A stretch of 64,000 nt of DNA from contig NZ_JAAIYO010000008.1 in assembly GCF_014930455.1 (NCBI RefSeq), forward strand, positions 32,367 to 96,366, in the 5' to 3' direction. The position numbers and the translations under genes are program-made. Shown in pieces: positions 18,481-39,690 of this stretch; the first letter of the stretch is position 1; each line of letters begins with the position of its first letter. Below the pieces are notes generated by a model that saw nothing but the letters and a program-made list of their open reading frames with translations, made no database searches and was not told where the DNA came from. The DNA comes from Corallococcus soli (lineage in GTDB: Bacteria > Myxococcota > Myxococcia > Myxococcales > Myxococcaceae).

Positions 18481-19374
18481 CTACTTCGCGTCGCCCATGA
18501 CCTCGATGGTGTTCTTGAGCCGCTCCAGGCCCAGGCGCACCAGGGCGCCCCGCAGGTCGGGCTGGCCCAGGAACGCCTTGCGGAACACCTCGCGCTCCAG
18601 CTTGAGCAGCGTGCACGGCGTCACCGTGCGCACGGTGGCGGTGGCCAGCCGGCTGCGCAGCAGGGAGATCTCCCCGAAGAGGGCGCCTTCCTCCAGCAGC
18701 GGGTAGGGCGACTGGCGTCCATCACCGTGCGTGTGGAAGACCTCGCACTTGCCCCGCAGCAGGACGTAGAGCGCGTCGCCCGGCTGGCCCCGGGTGAGCA
18801 GGGTCGTGCCCGCGGGGACGGTGCAGGGCACGAAGGCATCCCCCAGCTCGTGCTGCACTTCCTGGGGCAGGGCGGCGATGAGCGGGTTGCTGCGCAGGGT
18901 GTCCGCGAGCAGGCGCTCCTTCGCGGCCAGCTGCATCTCGTCGCCCTTCACGCCGTAGTCCTTGCCCAGCTCCCGGACGCCGGCCTGGGTCAGCTCCAGC
19001 AGCACCACGTCCTCCACCGTCACCACCGTGGCGGTGCGCTTGGTGCCGGTGAGCAGCGCCAGCTCCCCGAAGAACTCCCCCGCGCCCAGGCGGCCCACCT
19101 CCGTGTTCGCGGCGCCGTCGTTGCCGCGCAGCACGGCGACGCGGCCCTCCAGCACGACGAACATCGAATGGCCGGGGTCGCCCTCGCGCACCACCACCTG
19201 GCCCGCCTGGAGGTAGCGCGTGCAGACGGGGGGCGCGGGGTTCGCCGCTTCCGGCTCCGTCGCCGCCGTGGGGGCGGAGGGTGAGGCGGCGGTCGCGGGC
19301 GCCTGTCCGGCGCGAGCTTCCGGGGCGGCGGGGTGGGCGGACAGCAGGGCCTGGAGGCGCGCGAACAGGGACAT
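18481..19374 (-). CDS. protein with two cyclic-nucleotide-binding (cNMP) domains
   Basis: Two CAP-type cNMP cassettes carry GEFFGELALL and GALFGEISLL glycine motifs, each followed by a conserved RTATV/RLATATVR. Confidence 0.75.
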   Translation of the reverse strand: MSLFARLQALLSAHPAAPEARAGQAPATAASPSAPTAATEPEAANPAPPVCTRYLQAGQVVVREGDPGHSMFVVLEGRVAVLRGNDGAANTEVGRLGAGEFFGELALLTGTKRTATVVTVEDVVLLELTQAGVRELGKDYGVKGDEMQLAAKERLLADTLRSNPLIAALPQEVQHELGDAFVPCTVPAGTTLLTRGQPGDALYVLLRGKCEVFHTHGDGRQSPYPLLEEGALFGEISLLRSRLATATVRTVTPCTLLKLEREVFRKAFLGQPDLRGALVRLGLERLKNTIEVMGDAK

Positions 19375-19623
19375 GGTGCCGCGACGCTAGCGACTGGGTC
19401 AGGTGGAAACTGTGAAATGGTTCACACCCATCGGGCGGGGGGCCGAAAAGCCTGCCGGGCGGGTGGGCAGGTTCCTGCAAAGCCTTGCGGAAATCTTGCG
19501 CGTCGTGTCGGGCTCCGAAGCCTGAAAGGCATTGCGGAGCTGTTTCCAGGGGGTGGCTGCGGCCAGGAGAACGCATCCCCGCGGCTGGAGCCGGACGGGC
19601 TGACTGACTACAGTTGCGTCCCC

Positions 19624-20619
19624 ATGGGAGACACGCTGGACGTCGTCGTGGACCTGGGGGACGTGGGTGAGACGGCTGCGGACGCCGTGCTGCTGAAGTA
19701 CGCGCAGGGCTTCCACGGGGCGGACGGCGCGGTGGCCCGGCGGCTGGAGGGGGTGGGCATCGCCACGGACACCCTCACGGTGCTCCCCGGCGACCACCGC
19801 CTCATCGAGACCCGGGGGGGCCTGGGTTCGCCCTGGGTGCTCTTCCTGGGCACGGTGCGCCTGCGCCAGTTCGGCTACCACGAGATCCGCCAGTTCTCCG
19901 TCCGCGCGCTCCAGCTCCTGGAGCCCCGACCAACCCTCCGCCACCTCGCGTGCACGGTGCACGGCCCCAACTACGGGCTCGACGAGGACGAGGCCGTGCT
20001 GGCCCTGGTGGGCGGCTTCGTGGAGGCCTTCCAGCGTGGGGTGGGGCCGCGCGACCTGGAGCGCATCACGGTGGTGGAGCTCAACCCCAAGCGCATGGAG
20101 CGGATGCGCAAGGCCCTGGCGACAGGCCTGGGCGCCACCGCGGGGGTGGAGCCACTGCCCGGCGGCATGGGGTTCCGCGTCCGGCGCACGCCCCGGTTCG
20201 TCGCGGCGGCCCCCATGGCCAGCGCGGGCGCGAACTCCAACGAGAAGCCCCATGCCTTCGTGGCCATGCCCTTCGCCCAGGAGCTGGAGGACACGTACCA
20301 CTACGGCATCCTGGGGCCGGTGAAGGCCGCCGGGCTGCTCTGCGAGCGGGTGGATCAGGCCACCTTCGACGGCCCCATCATCCAGCGCATCCGGGACCGC
20401 ATCGACACCGCGAAGGTCGTCATCGCGGACCTGTCCCTGGCGAACCCCAACGTGTATCTGGAAGTGGGGTACGCCTGGGGGCGGGGCAAGCCCACGCTCC
20501 TGCTGGTGCGGGACGTGCGGGAGCTGCGCTTCGACGTGTCCAGCTACCGCTGCCTCGTCTATCGCAACATCCGGCACCTGGAAGAGGTGCTCACCCTGGA
20601 ACTTCAGCGGCTCCTCTGA
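19624..20619 (+). CDS. two-domain protein: N-terminal macro-like domain fused to C-terminal nucleoside 2-deoxyribosyltransferase-like (NDT/SLOG-like) domain
   Basis: The N-terminus resembles a macro domain (GDVGETAADAVLLKYAQGFHGADGAVARRL, PGDHRLIETRGGLGSPWVLFLGTV). The C-terminus has the NDT fold hallmarks FVAMPF and VIADLSLANPNVYLEVGYAWGRGKPTLLLV. No signal peptide is present. Confidence 0.5.
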   Translation: MGDTLDVVVDLGDVGETAADAVLLKYAQGFHGADGAVARRLEGVGIATDTLTVLPGDHRLIETRGGLGSPWVLFLGTVRLRQFGYHEIRQFSVRALQLLEPRPTLRHLACTVHGPNYGLDEDEAVLALVGGFVEAFQRGVGPRDLERITVVELNPKRMERMRKALATGLGATAGVEPLPGGMGFRVRRTPRFVAAAPMASAGANSNEKPHAFVAMPFAQELEDTYHYGILGPVKAAGLLCERVDQATFDGPIIQRIRDRIDTAKVVIADLSLANPNVYLEVGYAWGRGKPTLLLVRDVRELRFDVSSYRCLVYRNIRHLEEVLTLELQRLL

Positions 20620-20745
20620 CACCCGTCCACGGGAACGCTCCGGTGGACGCAAGGCCTGAAGCCTCCTCGCGGCCTTGTTGTCGCAGGGGCCGTCTCCACC
20701 TTTCCCTTTGGGACGAGTGCCCCAGGGACGGGTGGAGGAGGAGCC

Positions 20746-21762
20746 ATGAGTGACGCAGAGAAATACCGTGAAGCCTTGCTACGGATTGCCGACGTGGTCC
20801 GCAAGGCGACACAGGAAGACAGTCCGACAGCGCATGAGCACGGGAATGGTCACGGACGCGCGCAGCTCACGCCCGCGAGCCAGGGCGGTTGCACGCTGAA
20901 GCTCCTTCCCAGCCGCCTGCTGGTGAAGGCGGCGGAGGTGGCCAGGAGGATCAACCCGGTCAATGCGCCGCTGCCGGGCCCCATGGCCGCCGTGGGCGCG
21001 GAGTTCCCGTTGGATCCGATGCGCATCGCGCTCCTGACGTCGAAGTACTGGGGGCCGGCCACCCGCCAGTTGACCGTCAGCTTCATGGAGTCCGCACCCT
21101 CCGACCTCCGCGCCCGCATCGTGGAGCACCTGAACGCCTGGGCGATGAGCTCCGGTGTCTCCTTCGTCGAAACGAGCGGGACGGGCGTGGTGAGGATCTC
21201 CCGCGAGCCGGGGGGCTACTGGTCCTACCTGGGGACGGACGTCAAGCTCATCCCCACCGACGAGCCGACGATGAACCTGGAAGGGTTTACGATGCGCACC
21301 CCGGAGTCCGAATACAGCCGCGTCATCCGCCATGAGGCAGGGCACACGCTCGGCTTCCCGCACGAGCACATGCGGCGCGAGCTGGTGGCGCGAATCGACC
21401 CCGACAAGGCCTACGCGTACTTCCTCGCGACGCAGGGCTGGGACAAGACCACGGTGGATCAGCAGGTGCTCACGCCGCTGGATGACCAGTCCATCTTCGC
21501 CACCCCGGCCGACCAGACGTCCATCATGTGCTACCAACTGCCCAGCTCCATCACCCGCGATGGTCACCCCATCCTGGGAGGCCTGGACATCAACGTGACG
21601 GACTACGTGTTCGCGGGCCTCATCTACCCGAAGCTCGACTTCGAGGACATCAAGGCCGTCCGCAAGACGAAGCCGAAGCTCGCGGAGGAGCTCGCCTCCG
21701 CGATGGCACAGGTGGGCGTGAAGGACTGGGGCGAGGCGAGGGATCCGCGGCTGAGCATGTAG
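20746..21762 (+). CDS. cytoplasmic metzincin-like zinc metalloprotease
   Basis: The extended zinc motif HEAGHTLGFPHEH (HExxHxxGxxH) is present with a downstream Met-turn candidate (SIMCY). There is no signal peptide. Confidence 0.6.
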   Translation: MSDAEKYREALLRIADVVRKATQEDSPTAHEHGNGHGRAQLTPASQGGCTLKLLPSRLLVKAAEVARRINPVNAPLPGPMAAVGAEFPLDPMRIALLTSKYWGPATRQLTVSFMESAPSDLRARIVEHLNAWAMSSGVSFVETSGTGVVRISREPGGYWSYLGTDVKLIPTDEPTMNLEGFTMRTPESEYSRVIRHEAGHTLGFPHEHMRRELVARIDPDKAYAYFLATQGWDKTTVDQQVLTPLDDQSIFATPADQTSIMCYQLPSSITRDGHPILGGLDINVTDYVFAGLIYPKLDFEDIKAVRKTKPKLAEELASAMAQVGVKDWGEARDPRLSM

Positions 21763-21764
21763 CC

Positions 21765-22844
21765 CTACCAGCCGCGCGCCGTGACCTCCCAGGTGGCCAC
21801 GCCCTGAACACCACGGACGACGTGCAGGCGCGGGTGCAGGGGGACGGAAACACAGACATGGTTCGGCACCACGCGCACCCGGTCTCCGATGCGCGGTCGC
21901 CACGTCGTCGCGGACACGTCCAGCAGGCCGTGCTCCTCCGACAGGTTCTTCACCACGATCTCCGGCCGGTCCAGGAGGACGCCGTACCCCGGGGCCAGCC
22001 CCTCCTCCTTGGCGAGCGCCTTGGCCCCCGCGTCGATGACCACCTGCCCGGCCACGGCGGTGCTCACCACGGTGGCCAGGACCGAATAGGCGCACTCCGT
22101 CCAGTCGTTGGCGCCGATGACGGTGCTGTTGCGATCATTCAGCGCGTTGAGGCCCGGGCGGATCTCCGTGAGCCCTTGCACCGTGTGGGATTGCCAGAGG
22201 GTGGGGGTGGAGCCGCCGCTCACGACCTCGGGAGGCAGGCCCGCGCCGCGCAGGGCGTCCACGAACGACGCCAGTGTCTGGGATTGCGCCTGCATCGCGG
22301 CGGGCAGCTCCGCCTGGGGCATCCGGAGGTGGCCGGAATAGAACGTCACCCCGCGAAAGGACACGCCGGGCGTGGAGGCCGCCACGCGGGCCAGGGCGAC
22401 GGCCTCGTCAGGCGTCTTCAGCCCCACCCGGCGCATGCCCAGGTCCAGCTCCACCAGCACGCCCACGGTGCGCCCCGCGTCCCGGGCCGCACGCGCCAGT
22501 CCGTCCAGCACCTCCACGGCGTCGAGCGCCACGGTGATGCGCACATGGGAGGGGAGGGCCAGCAACCGCGCGAGGCGGCGGGCCCCCACGGGCGGGTACG
22601 CGAGCAGCACGTCGTCGGACACCGCCGCCATGACCTCGGCTTCCAGGACCGTGGACACCGTGACGCCCGATGCTCCGGCCGCCACCTGGAGCGCGCCCAG
22701 CTCCGCCGTCTTGTGGGTCTTCGTGTGGGGCCGCCAGCGCAGTCCGTGCTCGCGCGCATAGGTCGCGACGCGCTGGAGGTTCCGCTCGACGCGGTCCAGG
22801 TCGACGAGGGCGGCGGGCGTGTCGAGCGAGTCGAAGGAGGGCAT
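21765..22844 (-). CDS. PLP-dependent D-serine deaminase / D-threonine aldolase-like enzyme (alanine racemase N-domain family)
   Basis: The PLP-lysine region is WRPHTKTHKTAELG. The fold-type III barrel is followed by the C-terminal D-Ser dehydratase-like domain (NHVCVSVPLH). The start at MPSFDSL (22844) is preferred. Confidence 0.7.
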   Translation of the reverse strand: MPSFDSLDTPAALVDLDRVERNLQRVATYAREHGLRWRPHTKTHKTAELGALQVAAGASGVTVSTVLEAEVMAAVSDDVLLAYPPVGARRLARLLALPSHVRITVALDAVEVLDGLARAARDAGRTVGVLVELDLGMRRVGLKTPDEAVALARVAASTPGVSFRGVTFYSGHLRMPQAELPAAMQAQSQTLASFVDALRGAGLPPEVVSGGSTPTLWQSHTVQGLTEIRPGLNALNDRNSTVIGANDWTECAYSVLATVVSTAVAGQVVIDAGAKALAKEEGLAPGYGVLLDRPEIVVKNLSEEHGLLDVSATTWRPRIGDRVRVVPNHVCVSVPLHPRLHVVRGVQGVATWEVTARGW

Positions 22845-36631: not shown

Positions 36632-37087
36632 TCAGAACAACTGCGGAGTTCCTCCGTCGATCGTCACCTCGCCTGCGTCATTCACGCTGATGACGCTTGA
36701 TGCGGACGCAGTGTCGAGATCCACCTGGACGCGTGTTTGGGTATCCGCTGGGATCTGCAGATCTACCGGCCCTTCAAAGGAGCCATCGCCAAGATGCGCC
36801 AGCCAGAGCGTCGTCGGTGTTGCAGGGGTCCCTCCAGCGAAGCGGCCGGCCGTGGTGGTGGCGTTCACCTGGACACTGCCGCGCAAGCAATTCGCCTGCA
36901 GTCGCACCGCTAGGGGAACCCCCCAGGTTCCACCATCAGCATCCGTCAGCGTAGCGTCGCCGCGCTGGCTGATCCCGAGGTCGGAGATGAAAGTCGGACT
37001 GACCGGATCACACTGCTCGGACGGCGCATCGGGCACGCAGGCCATGGCCAGGACGACTGGGAAGAGGGTTGCGAGCTTCGCTCTCAT
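36632..37087 (-). CDS. small secreted (lipo)protein, island cargo
   Basis: A strong AGGAGG RBS lies 7 nt upstream of ATG 37087. The signal peptide is MRAKLATLFPVVLAMAC. The start is 2 nt after the stop of the upstream 665-aa gene. GC is lower than the flanking chromosome. Confidence 0.55.
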   Translation of the reverse strand: MRAKLATLFPVVLAMACVPDAPSEQCDPVSPTFISDLGISQRGDATLTDADGGTWGVPLAVRLQANCLRGSVQVNATTTAGRFAGGTPATPTTLWLAHLGDGSFEGPVDLQIPADTQTRVQVDLDTASASSVISVNDAGEVTIDGGTPQLF

Positions 37088-37089
37088 AA

Positions 37090-39087
37090 TTAACCTCCTG
37101 AAACAATTCCAGTGGTGGGCGCAGATCTAGCTCCGGTGAACGTGTCTCCAACGCTCTTCACCGCCTCTCCGACCACGCCGAGATCGATACCGAAGCCGAG
37201 CGAGAACGCCGGGAGCCAAGTGATACGGCCGTTGTAGGCGGGCGAAGAACCAGATGATGGCACGGCTATGAGCGTTCCGGGTGCGATCCCGACAGGCACG
37301 GAGACGGAGCGCCAGGAGACTCCCGTGGAGATGAAGAGCCCACGAGCTCCCGGGAACTCGTAGATGACACGGCCTCCCCACTGCGAGAGAAATGCTGGCT
37401 GGCCACCCCGGAACAGCCCCCCCTCAAGAGCTAGGCCGACGCCTCGGATCCAAGGAGAATCCTTCCCCGCCAGCGGATATCCGATGAGCAGGGCCGAGAT
37501 GGTAACCTGCCGTGAGAAGTCCTCGGAGGGCTGCAGTTCATAAATCTTGTTCGGCCCGAGTCCGCCAGAGACCTGAACGAATTGATATCCCCCGTATGCG
37601 GCCTTGTCTGGATACAGCGGAACATCTACGGTCACCTCGGTACCCAGGCTGACATACGAATGGGTAAGAGCGCGAACGCGCAGGTCTGCAGTGATGGATT
37701 GAACGTCGGTCTTCTCGTCGCAGGCCGCGACATTCTGACATACCGCGAAGCGGTACTGCTTGTTTTCGCCCGCATCGTGAAGGAGCAACACCGTGCTGGT
37801 GTAGTCAAGCAGCGCAAACTTCGAGCTGATCTCCAGCGAAGAGACGACCACCTGTTTTGCCTCTGGGCTCAACGCATGAGGGTGGAGCGGAAGAGCAGGT
37901 GGCGCTGCGGGTGCTGGCAAGAACTCCGAGTGGTCCGCGAATTTCAAATGGAGCAATTCTCCTTGGAGCCCACGAAACGCGAGCGGTTCAAGCTCCGACA
38001 GTCCAGGGATTCCAAACGCGGTCGCAAGCTTGAGCCCGCCGGCAAGAGCCTGGGTCGCCGGGTTGAGCTTGATCGCGATGTCCTGGGTCGGTAGCGCGGA
38101 GAGTTTGTCTCCGGTGGCCGCTGCCGCCTTCGTAGCCTTCAGGTTGTGGCCATACACCACGAGGAGGTCCTTGCCGCTCGCGATGTCTTCCTTCATGACG
38201 CCAGTGTTCGTGGAGATCGCGATGACCTCCGAGTTGGCCGGAAGCGTGCCAATGAAGAGTGGTTGAGCGACTATCGTCGAGTAATGGCTCGCGAGGGCCT
38301 GCGCCATCTCAAGCTGGGGCGGTAAGAGAGCATCAATGGTGGCGGCGAGGGTGGGTGCCTGCTCGTCATTTCCGACAAGCAAGAGGTTCCACTCGGGCTC
38401 AGTCAATTCCGCATTAGGGAGTGTACGCTCGAAGGCCTCCCGCAGCTTCACATTGGAAAACTTCAAGCGTTGCGGAGAGCTTAGCCAAGACTTCAGCGGG
38501 TTCTTGTTGCTCGTGTATGTCGCCGCAGCGAGCCACTCGCGGACTATTCGGTGGGCCTCCGAACTCGCTTTGAAGTGCTCCGCGCTTTTCGCTGCATTGC
38601 CTGGTTTCTTGATGAATGTGCCCCACACTTGTAACTCGAAGAGGGCCGCTCCAGCCAAAGCAGCCTTCGCAGGGGGCGTCTTGTTGAGCTGCTTATTTAT
38701 CGAATGAATCGAGTATGCGGAGCCGGGCCTCAGTGACTTTAGACAAAGAGTCTGGCCTTTCGCCGCAACTTGGCCATGCAAGTCAATGTATTGGTTGTTC
38801 CAATCCTCATGGAGGCAGAAGGAGCCCTTTAAATGATCTGGTTTCACTATCGAGCTACCGTTGACTAGAAGAACAATCTGGGCTTCATCGCACGAAATTT
38901 TTTCTTTAGTCGGCTCGGGTTCAGCACAGGTGCCTCTTTTGAAGTCTGCAGCATCGGCAGGCTCAGGTTTTTCCATGAGCAGCTTGATTGTCAGGTCGAT
39001 GAACGATTCCTGCGCTAATGCGGATGCCGAGATCAAACATCCGGCAACGAACATCGCCGGCCATCCTCCGTGGGTATGCAGTCCCAT
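37090..39087 (-). CDS. large secreted hypothetical protein (665 aa) with Gly-rich beta-rich C-terminal region, island cargo
   Basis: An AGGAGGGAG RBS precedes ATG 39087. A signal-peptide-like N-terminus (AMFVAGCLISASALAQE) is present. A 110 aa Gly/Ser-rich C-terminus follows (GGLFRGGQPAFLSQWGGRVIYEFPGARGLFISTGVSWRSVSVPVGIAPG). TAA stop. Codon usage differs from neighbours. Confidence 0.6.
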   Translation of the reverse strand: MGLHTHGGWPAMFVAGCLISASALAQESFIDLTIKLLMEKPEPADAADFKRGTCAEPEPTKEKISCDEAQIVLLVNGSSIVKPDHLKGSFCLHEDWNNQYIDLHGQVAAKGQTLCLKSLRPGSAYSIHSINKQLNKTPPAKAALAGAALFELQVWGTFIKKPGNAAKSAEHFKASSEAHRIVREWLAAATYTSNKNPLKSWLSSPQRLKFSNVKLREAFERTLPNAELTEPEWNLLLVGNDEQAPTLAATIDALLPPQLEMAQALASHYSTIVAQPLFIGTLPANSEVIAISTNTGVMKEDIASGKDLLVVYGHNLKATKAAAATGDKLSALPTQDIAIKLNPATQALAGGLKLATAFGIPGLSELEPLAFRGLQGELLHLKFADHSEFLPAPAAPPALPLHPHALSPEAKQVVVSSLEISSKFALLDYTSTVLLLHDAGENKQYRFAVCQNVAACDEKTDVQSITADLRVRALTHSYVSLGTEVTVDVPLYPDKAAYGGYQFVQVSGGLGPNKIYELQPSEDFSRQVTISALLIGYPLAGKDSPWIRGVGLALEGGLFRGGQPAFLSQWGGRVIYEFPGARGLFISTGVSWRSVSVPVGIAPGTLIAVPSSGSSPAYNGRITWLPAFSLGFGIDLGVVGEAVKSVGDTFTGARSAPTTGIVSGG

Positions 39088-39329
39088 GGTGCTCCCTCCT
39101 GGGTAGGACTTTGAGGGAGGTCGGCGACTGGCGCAAGTGTTTGAGAAGTGTTCCCGACTTTGGGGCCCATCCAGGAGTATCGCGTCGCAGGTTCAACGGT
39201 GCGCAGGGTGCAGAGTGTTTCGACATCGTGGACGGAATCCGCCAGAAACGCATTCCATGCCTTCAGCCTGGACTGCTGCGACCGCGAGGCCATCGCCTTC
39301 CAAACTGCCGCCCAGCCACCTGACGCGCT

Positions 39330-39690
39330 CACCATTCATCGAGACGCTTGAGGCCCGCTTTGGACCGGGCACCGCCAAGGCGCCACACCCGGTGGAGTGG
39401 CTGTCGGACAACGGCCCCGTCTACACCGCCAAGGACACCCGCGACTTCGGCTTGGCTCTCGGCCGGCGGGAGTGCACCACGCCCTCCTACTCCCCCCAGA
39501 GCAACGGCATGGCCGAGACCTTCGCGAAGACTTTCAAGCGCAACTACGTATACGTCAACGAGCTGCGCTCGGCCGCCCATGTCCTGACGCAGCTGCCCGC
39601 CTAGTTCGACGACTGCAACCGCTGCCACCCTCACCGGGACCTCAAAATGAAGTCACCCCGCGAGTTCCGTACTGCTAACTCCAACCTTGA
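39330..39690 (+). pseudogene. IS3-family transposase OrfB (DDE integrase core) C-terminal fragment with internal stop
   Basis: PHPVEWLSDNGPVYTAKDTRDFGLALGRRECTTPSYSPQSNGMAETFAKTFKRNYVY...ELRSAAHVLTQLPA*FDDCNRCHPHRDLKMKSPREF matches the IS3 OrfB pattern HSDRGSQYTS...GIxxSMSRxGNxxDNAxxESFFxTLK...YNxxRPHSALGYxSPxEF. An in-frame TAG lies at 39601. Confidence 0.7.

Follow-up and report, generated by a model that had tools for sequence, protein, structure and literature searches.

What does a bacterial protein that joins a macro-like domain to a nucleoside 2'-deoxyribosyltransferase (NDT)-like domain do, and is the metzincin protease gene that follows it part of the same system? The locus that raises these questions lies in a 64,000-nucleotide window of the Corallococcus soli genome (contig NZ_JAAIYO010000008.1, positions 32,367 to 96,366 of the forward strand; G+C about 70%), in whose numbering all coordinates below are given unless another locus is named. 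The first gene (gene A) was called by program as an open reading frame (ORF) at 19333-20619 (+), and alignment of 34 orthologues places its start at the ATG at 19624, giving a two-domain macro plus NDT-like (DrHyd) protein of 331 residues (19624..20619, +) that is the orthologue of Myxococcus xanthus MXAN_3123. No second copy occurs within the window. The second gene (gene B, 20746..21762, +) encodes a leaderless, myroilysin-like metzincin of 338 residues. The reading that we tentatively favour is that gene A encodes a self-contained, ligand-regulated nucleotide/NAD+ N-glycosidase composed of a macro sensor and an NDT-like output domain, while gene B is an unrelated cargo gene that entered one Corallococcus subclade by recent insertion.

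Firstly, the N-terminal half of the gene A protein (residues 1-190; 19624..20193, +) has a macro fold by structural comparison. An AlphaFold2 model of the full-length protein built on the 34 orthologues has a mean pLDDT (per-residue model confidence) of 85.9, with the blocks covering residues 1-190 mostly above 85, and this region forms a three-layer α/β/α macro fold that superposes on macrodomains by two fold-comparison methods. In Foldseek it aligns with Af1521, YmdB, macroH2A1.1, PARP14 and TTHA0132 at a probability of 1.0 and a target-normalised TM-score of about 0.7, and MacroD-type hydrolases are among the closest macro structures. Residues 1-200 have no match in Pfam, NCBIfam or PADLOC, the protein does not match Pfam Macro (PF01661) at E<=0.1, and a profile search of the PDB with the family alignment returns no macro match; since sequence profiles give no match, the macro assignment rests on the fold comparison. 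Six of 57 family members weakly match the macro-fold Pfam family Peptidase_M17_N (leucyl aminopeptidase N-domain). The conserved residues of this half are D13, D20, K25, A27, T111, H113, G114, G118-L119-D120-E121 and E123, with K25 and D120 invariant and H113 and G114 nearly so among 57 sequences of about 40% identity. By eye, the conserved segments GDV (11-13), KYAQ (25-28), G-A-D-G (32-35) and TVHGPNYGLD (111-120) occupy the positions of the macrodomain GDIT, NAAN, glycine-loop and GxYG-loop elements, and the domain may bind a ligand containing ADP-ribose (ADPR).

Secondly, the C-terminal half has a Rossmannoid NDT fold by structural comparison. It is joined to the macro domain by a variable, low-confidence linker (residues 191-205; 20194..20238, +), of which residues 194-205 have pLDDT values below 50 and which varies in length across the family alignment, and the NDT/DNPH1/MilB-like (DrHyd) domain itself spans residues 206-331 (20239..20616, +). 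A separate model of residues 203-331 (pLDDT 87.5; predicted TM-score, pTM, 0.84) is closest to the CMP/hmCMP N-glycosidase MilB (query-normalised TM-score of 0.81), followed by a cyanobacterial nucleoside 2'-deoxyribosyltransferase, BcmB, DNPH1/RCL and then the SARM1 TIR domain. The Pfam NDT family (PF05014) matches gene A at 26.2 bits, under its gathering cut-off of 28.8, and over the second half of the profile only (positions 51-103); it is matched by 56 of the 57 family members at E<=1, the best at 5.4e-6. The recognisable motifs are FVAMPF on strand 1, CERxD (240-244) and NPNVYLEVGYAWG, which contains the nearly invariant E280 (20461-20463). The family profile aligns NPNVYLEVGYAWGRGRP with PGTHVEIGWASGMGKP of MilB, placing E280 on the Glu of the MilB HVEIGW motif, the residue mutated in PDB entry 4ohb ("MilB E103A"). 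In addition, the PADLOC "Effector TIR" model for CBASS (PDLC00733) aligns through its C-terminal part with residues 250-320 (E 4.7e-13), and every one of the 57 members tested matches it too (best E 2.8e-18). The Cap12/Pycsar TIR family (PF10137) gives weak matches in 7 of the 57 and Pfam TIR_2 matches two, at 0.023, and TIR structures score below those of the NDT family. The domain lies between the related TIR and NDT superfamilies, closer to NDT. The initial annotation had proposed a macro plus NDT/SLOG fusion, to be checked with profiles and Foldseek, in a protein with no signal peptide on either half. The macro part stands by its fold and not by its profile, and the NDT part by its fold, by the alignment with the MilB Glu and by a PF05014 match below cut-off; SLOG was given up in favour of NDT/DrHyd, the best structural and profile matches not being SLOG members. 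Our reading of the sequence likewise finds no hydrophobic, signal-peptide-like stretch at the N-terminus.

Taken together, these features suggest a mechanism in which the macro domain would bind a small molecule containing ADPR and the NDT-like domain would then cleave the N-glycosidic bond of NAD+ or of a nucleotide, using the conserved E280, with the same sensor-plus-output logic as Thoeris ThsA or the CBASS effectors. What the data show directly are the two folds, the conserved residues, the fusion partners, the phyletic and syntenic pattern and the recent insertion of the metzincin gene, whereas the ligand, the substrate, the direction of this regulation and any role in cell death or immunity are our inferences. 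Mounted on TIR, effector-associated (EAD), Death-like or caspase domains in other phyla, the module would be the executing part of conflict systems built on NTPases or TIR proteins; in the Myxococcota it has become fixed as a single-copy, solitary core gene. What is new here is the pairing of a macro sensor with an NDT-like output; nucleotide-signalling effector proteins in general are known.

The distribution of the family and its fusion partners bear on this proposal. A word-indexed search recovered 1658 relatives of gene A. The best 120 of them are 56-98% identical to it, all but six cover at least 96% of the query, and those that carry an organism name are all from Myxococcota, including M. 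xanthus MXAN_3123, Corallococcus, Archangium, Hyalangium, Vitiosangium and Kofleriaceae. An exhaustive profile search yields 579 clusters (at 50% identity) at E<=1e-30, almost all of which match both domains. Counting one genome per species, relatives are encoded in 369 of 185,579 genomes; about the top 60 are Myxococcota, and the remainder are scattered over Acidobacteriota, Chloroflexota (Caldilineaceae, Ktedonobacteraceae, Chloroflexia), Gemmatimonadota, Binatia, Bacteroidota, Armatimonadota, one alphaproteobacterium and one Methanosarcina.

Among the top 150 family representatives, 42 are longer than the basic macro-NDT module. A Pfam scan of these 42 finds TIR_2 in 21, TIR in 11, CAP12/Pycsar TIR in 6, EAD7 in 5, ThsB_TIR in 3, EAD1 and CHAT in 2 each, and EAD11, bDLD1, DUF4062, HTH, HD and Astacin in one each, to which NCBIfam adds TIR domains of the FxsC type (9 members) and of the Thoeris type III ThcB4 type (5 members). 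Further fusions join the module to a calcineurin-like Metallophos domain, to a caspase-like N-terminus (HG...DCC) in Methanosarcina and to an N-terminal TIR in Ktedonobacteraceae. The long "fusions" at two further loci (L053 and L066) were rejected, as reading of the sequence shows over-extension of the upstream ORF. EAD and Death-like adaptor domains, with their effector domains, have been described for the NTP-dependent conflict systems of multicellular prokaryotes by Kaur, Burroughs, Iyer and Aravind, in main-text passages of PMC7159879, PMC8195603 and PMC9503650, and in those of the first two DRHyd, Macro and TIR are listed among the nucleotide-directed effector domains joined to EADs. The same main-text passages of the three papers, supplements aside, do not mention a Macro plus DRHyd dyad. 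Because TIR, EAD1/7/11, bDLD1, CHAT/caspase, HD and Metallophos domains occur as fusion partners among the relatives, and because all 57 members match PDLC00733, an affinity with NAD/ADPR-based conflict or signalling is supported at the level of the family. To that extent the resemblance drawn by the initial annotation holds; the protease-partner layout on which it was also drawn does not, as described below.

The same fusions bear on an alternative in which the module generates the signal instead of answering it: the NDT-like domain would perform base exchange or cyclisation on NAD+, as does the NDT-like ThsB, to give an ADPR conjugate, and the macro domain would hold or trim the product. NDT enzymes are transglycosylases, and ThsB, whose active sites are NDT-like, makes His-ADPR/IAD (PMC11204291); passages of PMC9503650 propose the DrHyd superfamily as a source of ADPR derivatives, and here Macro and NDT-like domains share one chain. 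However, the fusions to EAD and Death-like domains put the module in the effector position described in passages of PMC7159879, not upstream of it, about half of the extended members (21/42) already carry a TIR domain as a possible generator, and no downstream effector gene is linked to the module in Myxococcota. We regard signal generation as distinctly improbable.

In the Myxococcota, the macro-NDT gene is a single-copy, vertically inherited and solitary chromosomal core gene, present in most of the top 60 or so genomes retrieved from the phylum. Partners were sought at 7 loci retrieved by exact protein look-up, at 80 genome loci, by tblastn of the window neighbours and by all-against-all clustering of 73 neighbourhoods, whose genes came from a rough GC3-based caller. 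At the 7 loci (from M. xanthus, Archangium, a Myxococcales metagenome-assembled genome (MAG), a Kofleriaceae MAG and several Corallococcus) the orthologue stands alone amid unrelated metabolic and regulatory genes, and across the 73 loci no neighbour is conserved between clades, synteny being confined to the clade level. One such clade-level arrangement is found in Myxococcus and Corallococcus, where the gene lies beside a convergent D-Ser-dehydratase-like gene and an S9 peptidase gene. The three proteins are 87, 86 and 87% identical, respectively, between the window and C. coralloides, and 70, 69 and 82% identical between the window and M. xanthus. The initial annotation had looked to defence-island enrichment in other genomes for support and to uniformly housekeeping contexts for its refutation; the Myxococcota orthologues lie outside defence islands and always in clade-specific synteny of a housekeeping type, with no common partner.

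Given the conservation, solitary position and vertical inheritance of the gene in Myxococcota, a housekeeping role is a serious rival, which overall we judge somewhat unlikely. The macro domain would then hydrolyse or bind an ADPR derivative (for example O-acetyl-ADPR or ADPR-1''-phosphate) and the NDT-like domain would, like DNPH1 and MilB, hydrolyse a (deoxy)nucleoside monophosphate, for salvage or detoxification and with no part in conflict. The gene is single-copy and syntenic, its identity follows that of the D-Ser-dehydratase-like, S9 peptidase and Lnb_N neighbours across Myxococcaceae, it occurs in most of the Myxococcota genomes just mentioned and it lacks a conserved partner, all of which favours such a role. 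The nearest solved structures also point this way, being the metabolic N-glycosidases MilB, NDT and DNPH1 for one half and including MacroD-type hydrolases for the other. The family is rare outside Myxococcota, however, and a patchy phyletic spread over 369 of 185,579 species genomes does not suit general housekeeping; moreover TIR, EAD, Death-like and caspase domains are attached to its relatives, which have integrase and toxin-antitoxin genes nearby, and the match to the CBASS effector model extends to all 57 members.

Several observations weigh against a ligand-regulated N-glycosidase with a role in conflict, and are the reason that we hold this reading tentatively. In the macro domain the canonical GGG phosphate loop is, by eye, replaced by G-A-D-G, so that binding of ADPR is not assured, and none of 57 divergent family members matches Pfam Macro at E<=1. 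Classical NDTs have a Tyr that helps the Glu; in the NDT-like domain here its place is apparently taken (by eye) by an invariant Phe, F212 of FVAMPF. The pTM of the full-length model is 0.59, and the interdomain geometry is uncertain. The window protein begins directly with the macro domain and bears neither an EAD nor a TIR domain, none of the five annotated flanking genes in the window and none of the genes at the 7 orthologous loci encodes a TIR protein or an NTPase, and no defence island is seen at the window locus or at the syntenic loci. Its strong conservation and vertical inheritance look more like those of a housekeeping enzyme than of a typical defence gene. Finally, a search of the literature on MXAN_3123, macro plus NDT effectors and new TIR systems found no characterised member of the family.

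A bolder extension of the sensor-plus-output reading is also conceivable, but we think it unlikely. Gene A would be a ThsA-like effector, domesticated by the Myxococcota as a core gene, gated by a messenger and destroying NAD+ or nucleotides, that answers in trans to ADPR-derived signals from dispersed TIR proteins and could feed into abortive infection, kin conflict or the programmed lysis seen during fruiting-body development, while the TIR-Macro-NDT fusions found elsewhere would be single-chain immune proteins combining generator, sensor and effector.

Some further features of the gene A surroundings were noted. Divergent from gene A lies a gene (18481-19374, -) whose product has two cyclic-nucleotide-binding domains (PF00027, E 5.9e-46); the gene is syntenic in Corallococcus and not found at this position in M. 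xanthus. Close relatives have about 780-830 bp of extra DNA 5' of gene A (window 19436-19605 versus L011 7177-7960, L019 7155-7984 and L046 1724-2501), and at L006 and L007, which share their contigs with L019 and L011, this DNA contains a DLH/alpha-beta hydrolase gene (244-293 residues) directly 5' of gene A; its absence from the window appears to reflect a local deletion. At seven loci from one clade of uncultured Myxococcaceae/Archangiaceae MAGs (L049, L051-L054, L057 and L068) the macro-NDT gene is followed on the same strand by genes for a 136-residue protein and a protein of about 360-390 residues, which by eye resemble, respectively, a CBS-domain protein and one of the cytochrome c peroxidase-like kind. 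The arrangement is probably clade synteny and not a functional link. Four records labelled "Comamonas sp. KCTC 72670" and "uncultured Enterobacterales bacterium" (L036, BNCN01000010.1; L058, L059 and L067) have G+C contents of about 70-72%. The "Comamonas" record shows Myxococcus-type synteny around a 70%-identical macro-NDT gene and the "Enterobacterales" copies are 49-52% identical, and these are probably mislabelled or contaminated assemblies.

The second question, whether gene B belongs with gene A, is answered by the history of the interval between gene A and the convergent D-Ser-dehydratase-like gene. By nucleotide alignment, the gene A stop in C. llansteffanensis and C. sicarius lies 6 bp from the point homologous to window position 21767, and 20620-21766 is on that account a clean, lineage-specific insertion of 1.15 kb that comprises a spacer and the metzincin gene. 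In C. coralloides the same gap contains about 1.3 kb of different DNA (L013 8996-10319), including a gene of about 389 codons whose product looks by eye like a secreted beta-helix protein. The gap is a cargo slot, filled by the metzincin gene in the clade of C. terminator, C. praedator and strain BB11-1. The metzincin gene adjoins the macro-NDT gene at only 3 of 80 species-level loci (MAG PMG_225, C. terminator CA054A and C. praedator), in all of which the macro-NDT protein is at least 96% identical, and it is absent from the gene A locus of eight other Corallococcus species. Among its carriers the metzincin is 82-85% identical, compared with 92-98% for the flanking genes. C. llansteffanensis has a 73%-identical metzincin on a different contig, beside an amidase gene and unlinked to the macro-NDT gene, and elsewhere no macro-NDT gene is found near the metzincin homologues, those of Hymenobacter and another genome having unrelated contexts. 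The intergenic spacer (20620..20745, +) contains two tandem hairpins (GTCCAC..GTGGAC at 20625-20648 and CAAGGCC..GGCCTTG at 20650-20677) and a strong ribosome-binding site, GGAGGAGGAG, before the metzincin ATG; its predicted fold (-35.7 kcal/mol, z -1.62) is not significant, and a scan of it for consensus promoters and terminators found nothing significant and no consensus terminator.

These observations largely refute, by phylogenetic distribution, a two-gene system in which macro-NDT protein and leaderless metzincin cooperate, for example through a nucleotide signal that controls an intracellular protease, and we hold such a system to be very improbable. The two genes do lie side by side on one strand in the window, an arrangement shared by three close relatives, and in a clade of six clusters (P0275 and P0389-P0393, 59-66% identical to P0275) macro-NDT is followed in the same protein by a myroilysin-like domain homologous to gene B (28% identity over 207 residues, E 3e-15). 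Set against this, the metzincin is not beside gene A at 77 of the 80 species loci, its cargo slot holds other DNA in C. coralloides, its divergence outpaces that of its flanks, the two genes are unlinked in C. llansteffanensis, other metzincin loci lack macro-NDT, and hairpins and a separate ribosome-binding site intervene between the two genes. In the fusion clade, moreover, a conserved HQFGRAIGLxPEH stands in place of the zinc motif, so that no active protease is expected there (a pseudo-protease). We take this clade to mean that the module samples many partners, and not as evidence that the window pair is a system. One of its genes (L091 8001-9785) lies near a phage-type integrase fragment and toxin-antitoxin-like genes. 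The layout of a macro-NDT protein with an intracellular protease that the initial annotation had read as a possible system is, in short, an unrelated cargo gene recently inserted next to gene A in one Corallococcus subclade, and the protease "partner" should not serve to infer the function of gene A.

The metzincin itself belongs to a leaderless group. As had been proposed from the sequence, the gene B product is a metzincin without a signal peptide: it scores 24.4 bits against Pfam Astacin (PF01400; cut-off 22.5), matches myroilysin over residues 91-296 (E 3e-25), and has an HExxHxxGxxH zinc site (HEAGHTLGFPHEH, residues 196-208; 21331-21369), a SIMCY Met-turn at residue 259 (21520-21534), a conserved Cys49 and an acidic C-terminal tail, with no hydrophobic signal-peptide-like stretch at the N-terminus when the sequence is read. 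The protein is 100% identical to one from Corallococcus sp. BB11-1, and homologues of about 320 residues (58-68% identity) occur in Acidobacteriota, Methylocaldum and Hymenobacter. Because homologues across phyla (P0122-P0205) are all leaderless, the lack of a signal peptide is a property of this family and not the oddity that it had been taken for. These homologues share an acidic tail with a D-W motif and an invariant Cys in the motif C-[TSV]-[LI]-K-x-[LV]-P-x-R-L, and this Cys (Cys49 in gene B) could act as a cysteine switch. At two non-myxobacterial loci an ORF of about 100 residues without a Pfam match follows the metzincin gene. Gene B resembles myroilysin (an M12 metzincin; PDB 5gwd/5czw) in its catalytic domain, HExxHxxGxxH site, Met-turn and conserved upstream Cys, and differs from it in having no signal peptide. 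Myroilysin is a secreted protease and is activated by a cysteine switch. An identity of gene B with AbsR1 was ruled out (NCBIfam AbsR1 39.8 bits, cut-off 650). The two are distantly related, both being leaderless and metzincin-like; AbsR1 (SCO6992, MMP-like_3 group) of Streptomyces coelicolor is intracellular and influences the production of antibiotics, and in vitro it showed no proteolysis (PMC9705864).

Elsewhere in the window, the interval 36600-39600 has a low G+C content (0.60-0.61 versus about 0.70) and no Rfam match. It contains a 665-residue ORF (37090-39087, -) with a signal-peptide-like start, a 151-residue ORF and, beside the larger ORF, an apparent C-terminal fragment of a DDE transposase (39137-39604; by eye), and it has the appearance of an insert gained by horizontal transfer.

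Should an NDT-like N-glycosidase indeed be gated by the macro domain, gene A would represent a new pairing of sensor and output among the nucleotide-signalling immune effectors of the TIR, Thoeris and CBASS systems, and would be an unusual instance of such a module as a vertically inherited core gene in a multicellular bacterial phylum. M. xanthus, which carries the orthologue MXAN_3123, is genetically tractable and allows a direct test of whether ADPR-type signalling also operates away from mobile defence islands, as in development or predation.

Comparison with known systems places gene A among several of them. It shares with NDT, DNPH1 (RCL) and the MilB-BcmB N-glycosidases (PF05014, the "DrHyd" of Burroughs and Aravind) the NDT fold and the placement of E280 on the MilB Glu, while differing in its sub-cut-off PF05014 score, in the Phe of FVAMPF that by eye stands in for Tyr, and in its fusion to a macro domain, which is described for no solved NDT-family structure among the matches listed. 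With the CBASS TIR-type effector (PDLC00733), its only PADLOC match, and with the Cap12/Pycsar TIR family (PF10137), it shares similarity between residues 250-320 and the catalytic region at the C-terminal end of the model; the alignment spans only about 70 residues, however, the N-terminal 290 positions of the CBASS model do not match the macro domain, and no CD-NTase/cyclase gene is adjacent in the window flanks or at the 7 orthologous loci. Relatives of gene A resemble the EAD- and Death-like-linked effectors (Kaur, Burroughs, Iyer and Aravind, 2020, 2021) in bearing EAD1, EAD7, EAD11 or bDLD1 N-termini, or CHAT/caspase or TIR domains, whereas the window protein lacks an EAD, no gene of the NTPase, vWA-MoxR or STAND kind is linked to it, and EAD1/7/11 and bDLD1 occur only in its more distant relatives.

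The remaining comparison is with Thoeris, whose ThsA has a sensor of the SLOG or macro kind and an output that is either SIR2 or a membrane domain, arranged as SIR2-SLOG in type I and transmembrane-macro in type II. In type II the macro domain senses the TIR-made ADPR conjugate His-ADPR/IAD, the ThsB active sites being NDT-like (PMC11204291; 10.64898/2025.12.03.692087). Gene A matches none of the PADLOC Thoeris models and differs from Thoeris in having no adjacent TIR (ThsB) gene, no transmembrane or SIR2 output but an NDT-like one, and the setting of a solitary, syntenic core gene in place of a defence-island operon. It resembles ThsA in uniting a nucleotide-sensing and an output domain in one polypeptide, and the resemblance to Thoeris extends to its relatives, many of which carry an N-terminal TIR domain that in some cases matches the ThsB_TIR or ThcB4 models.

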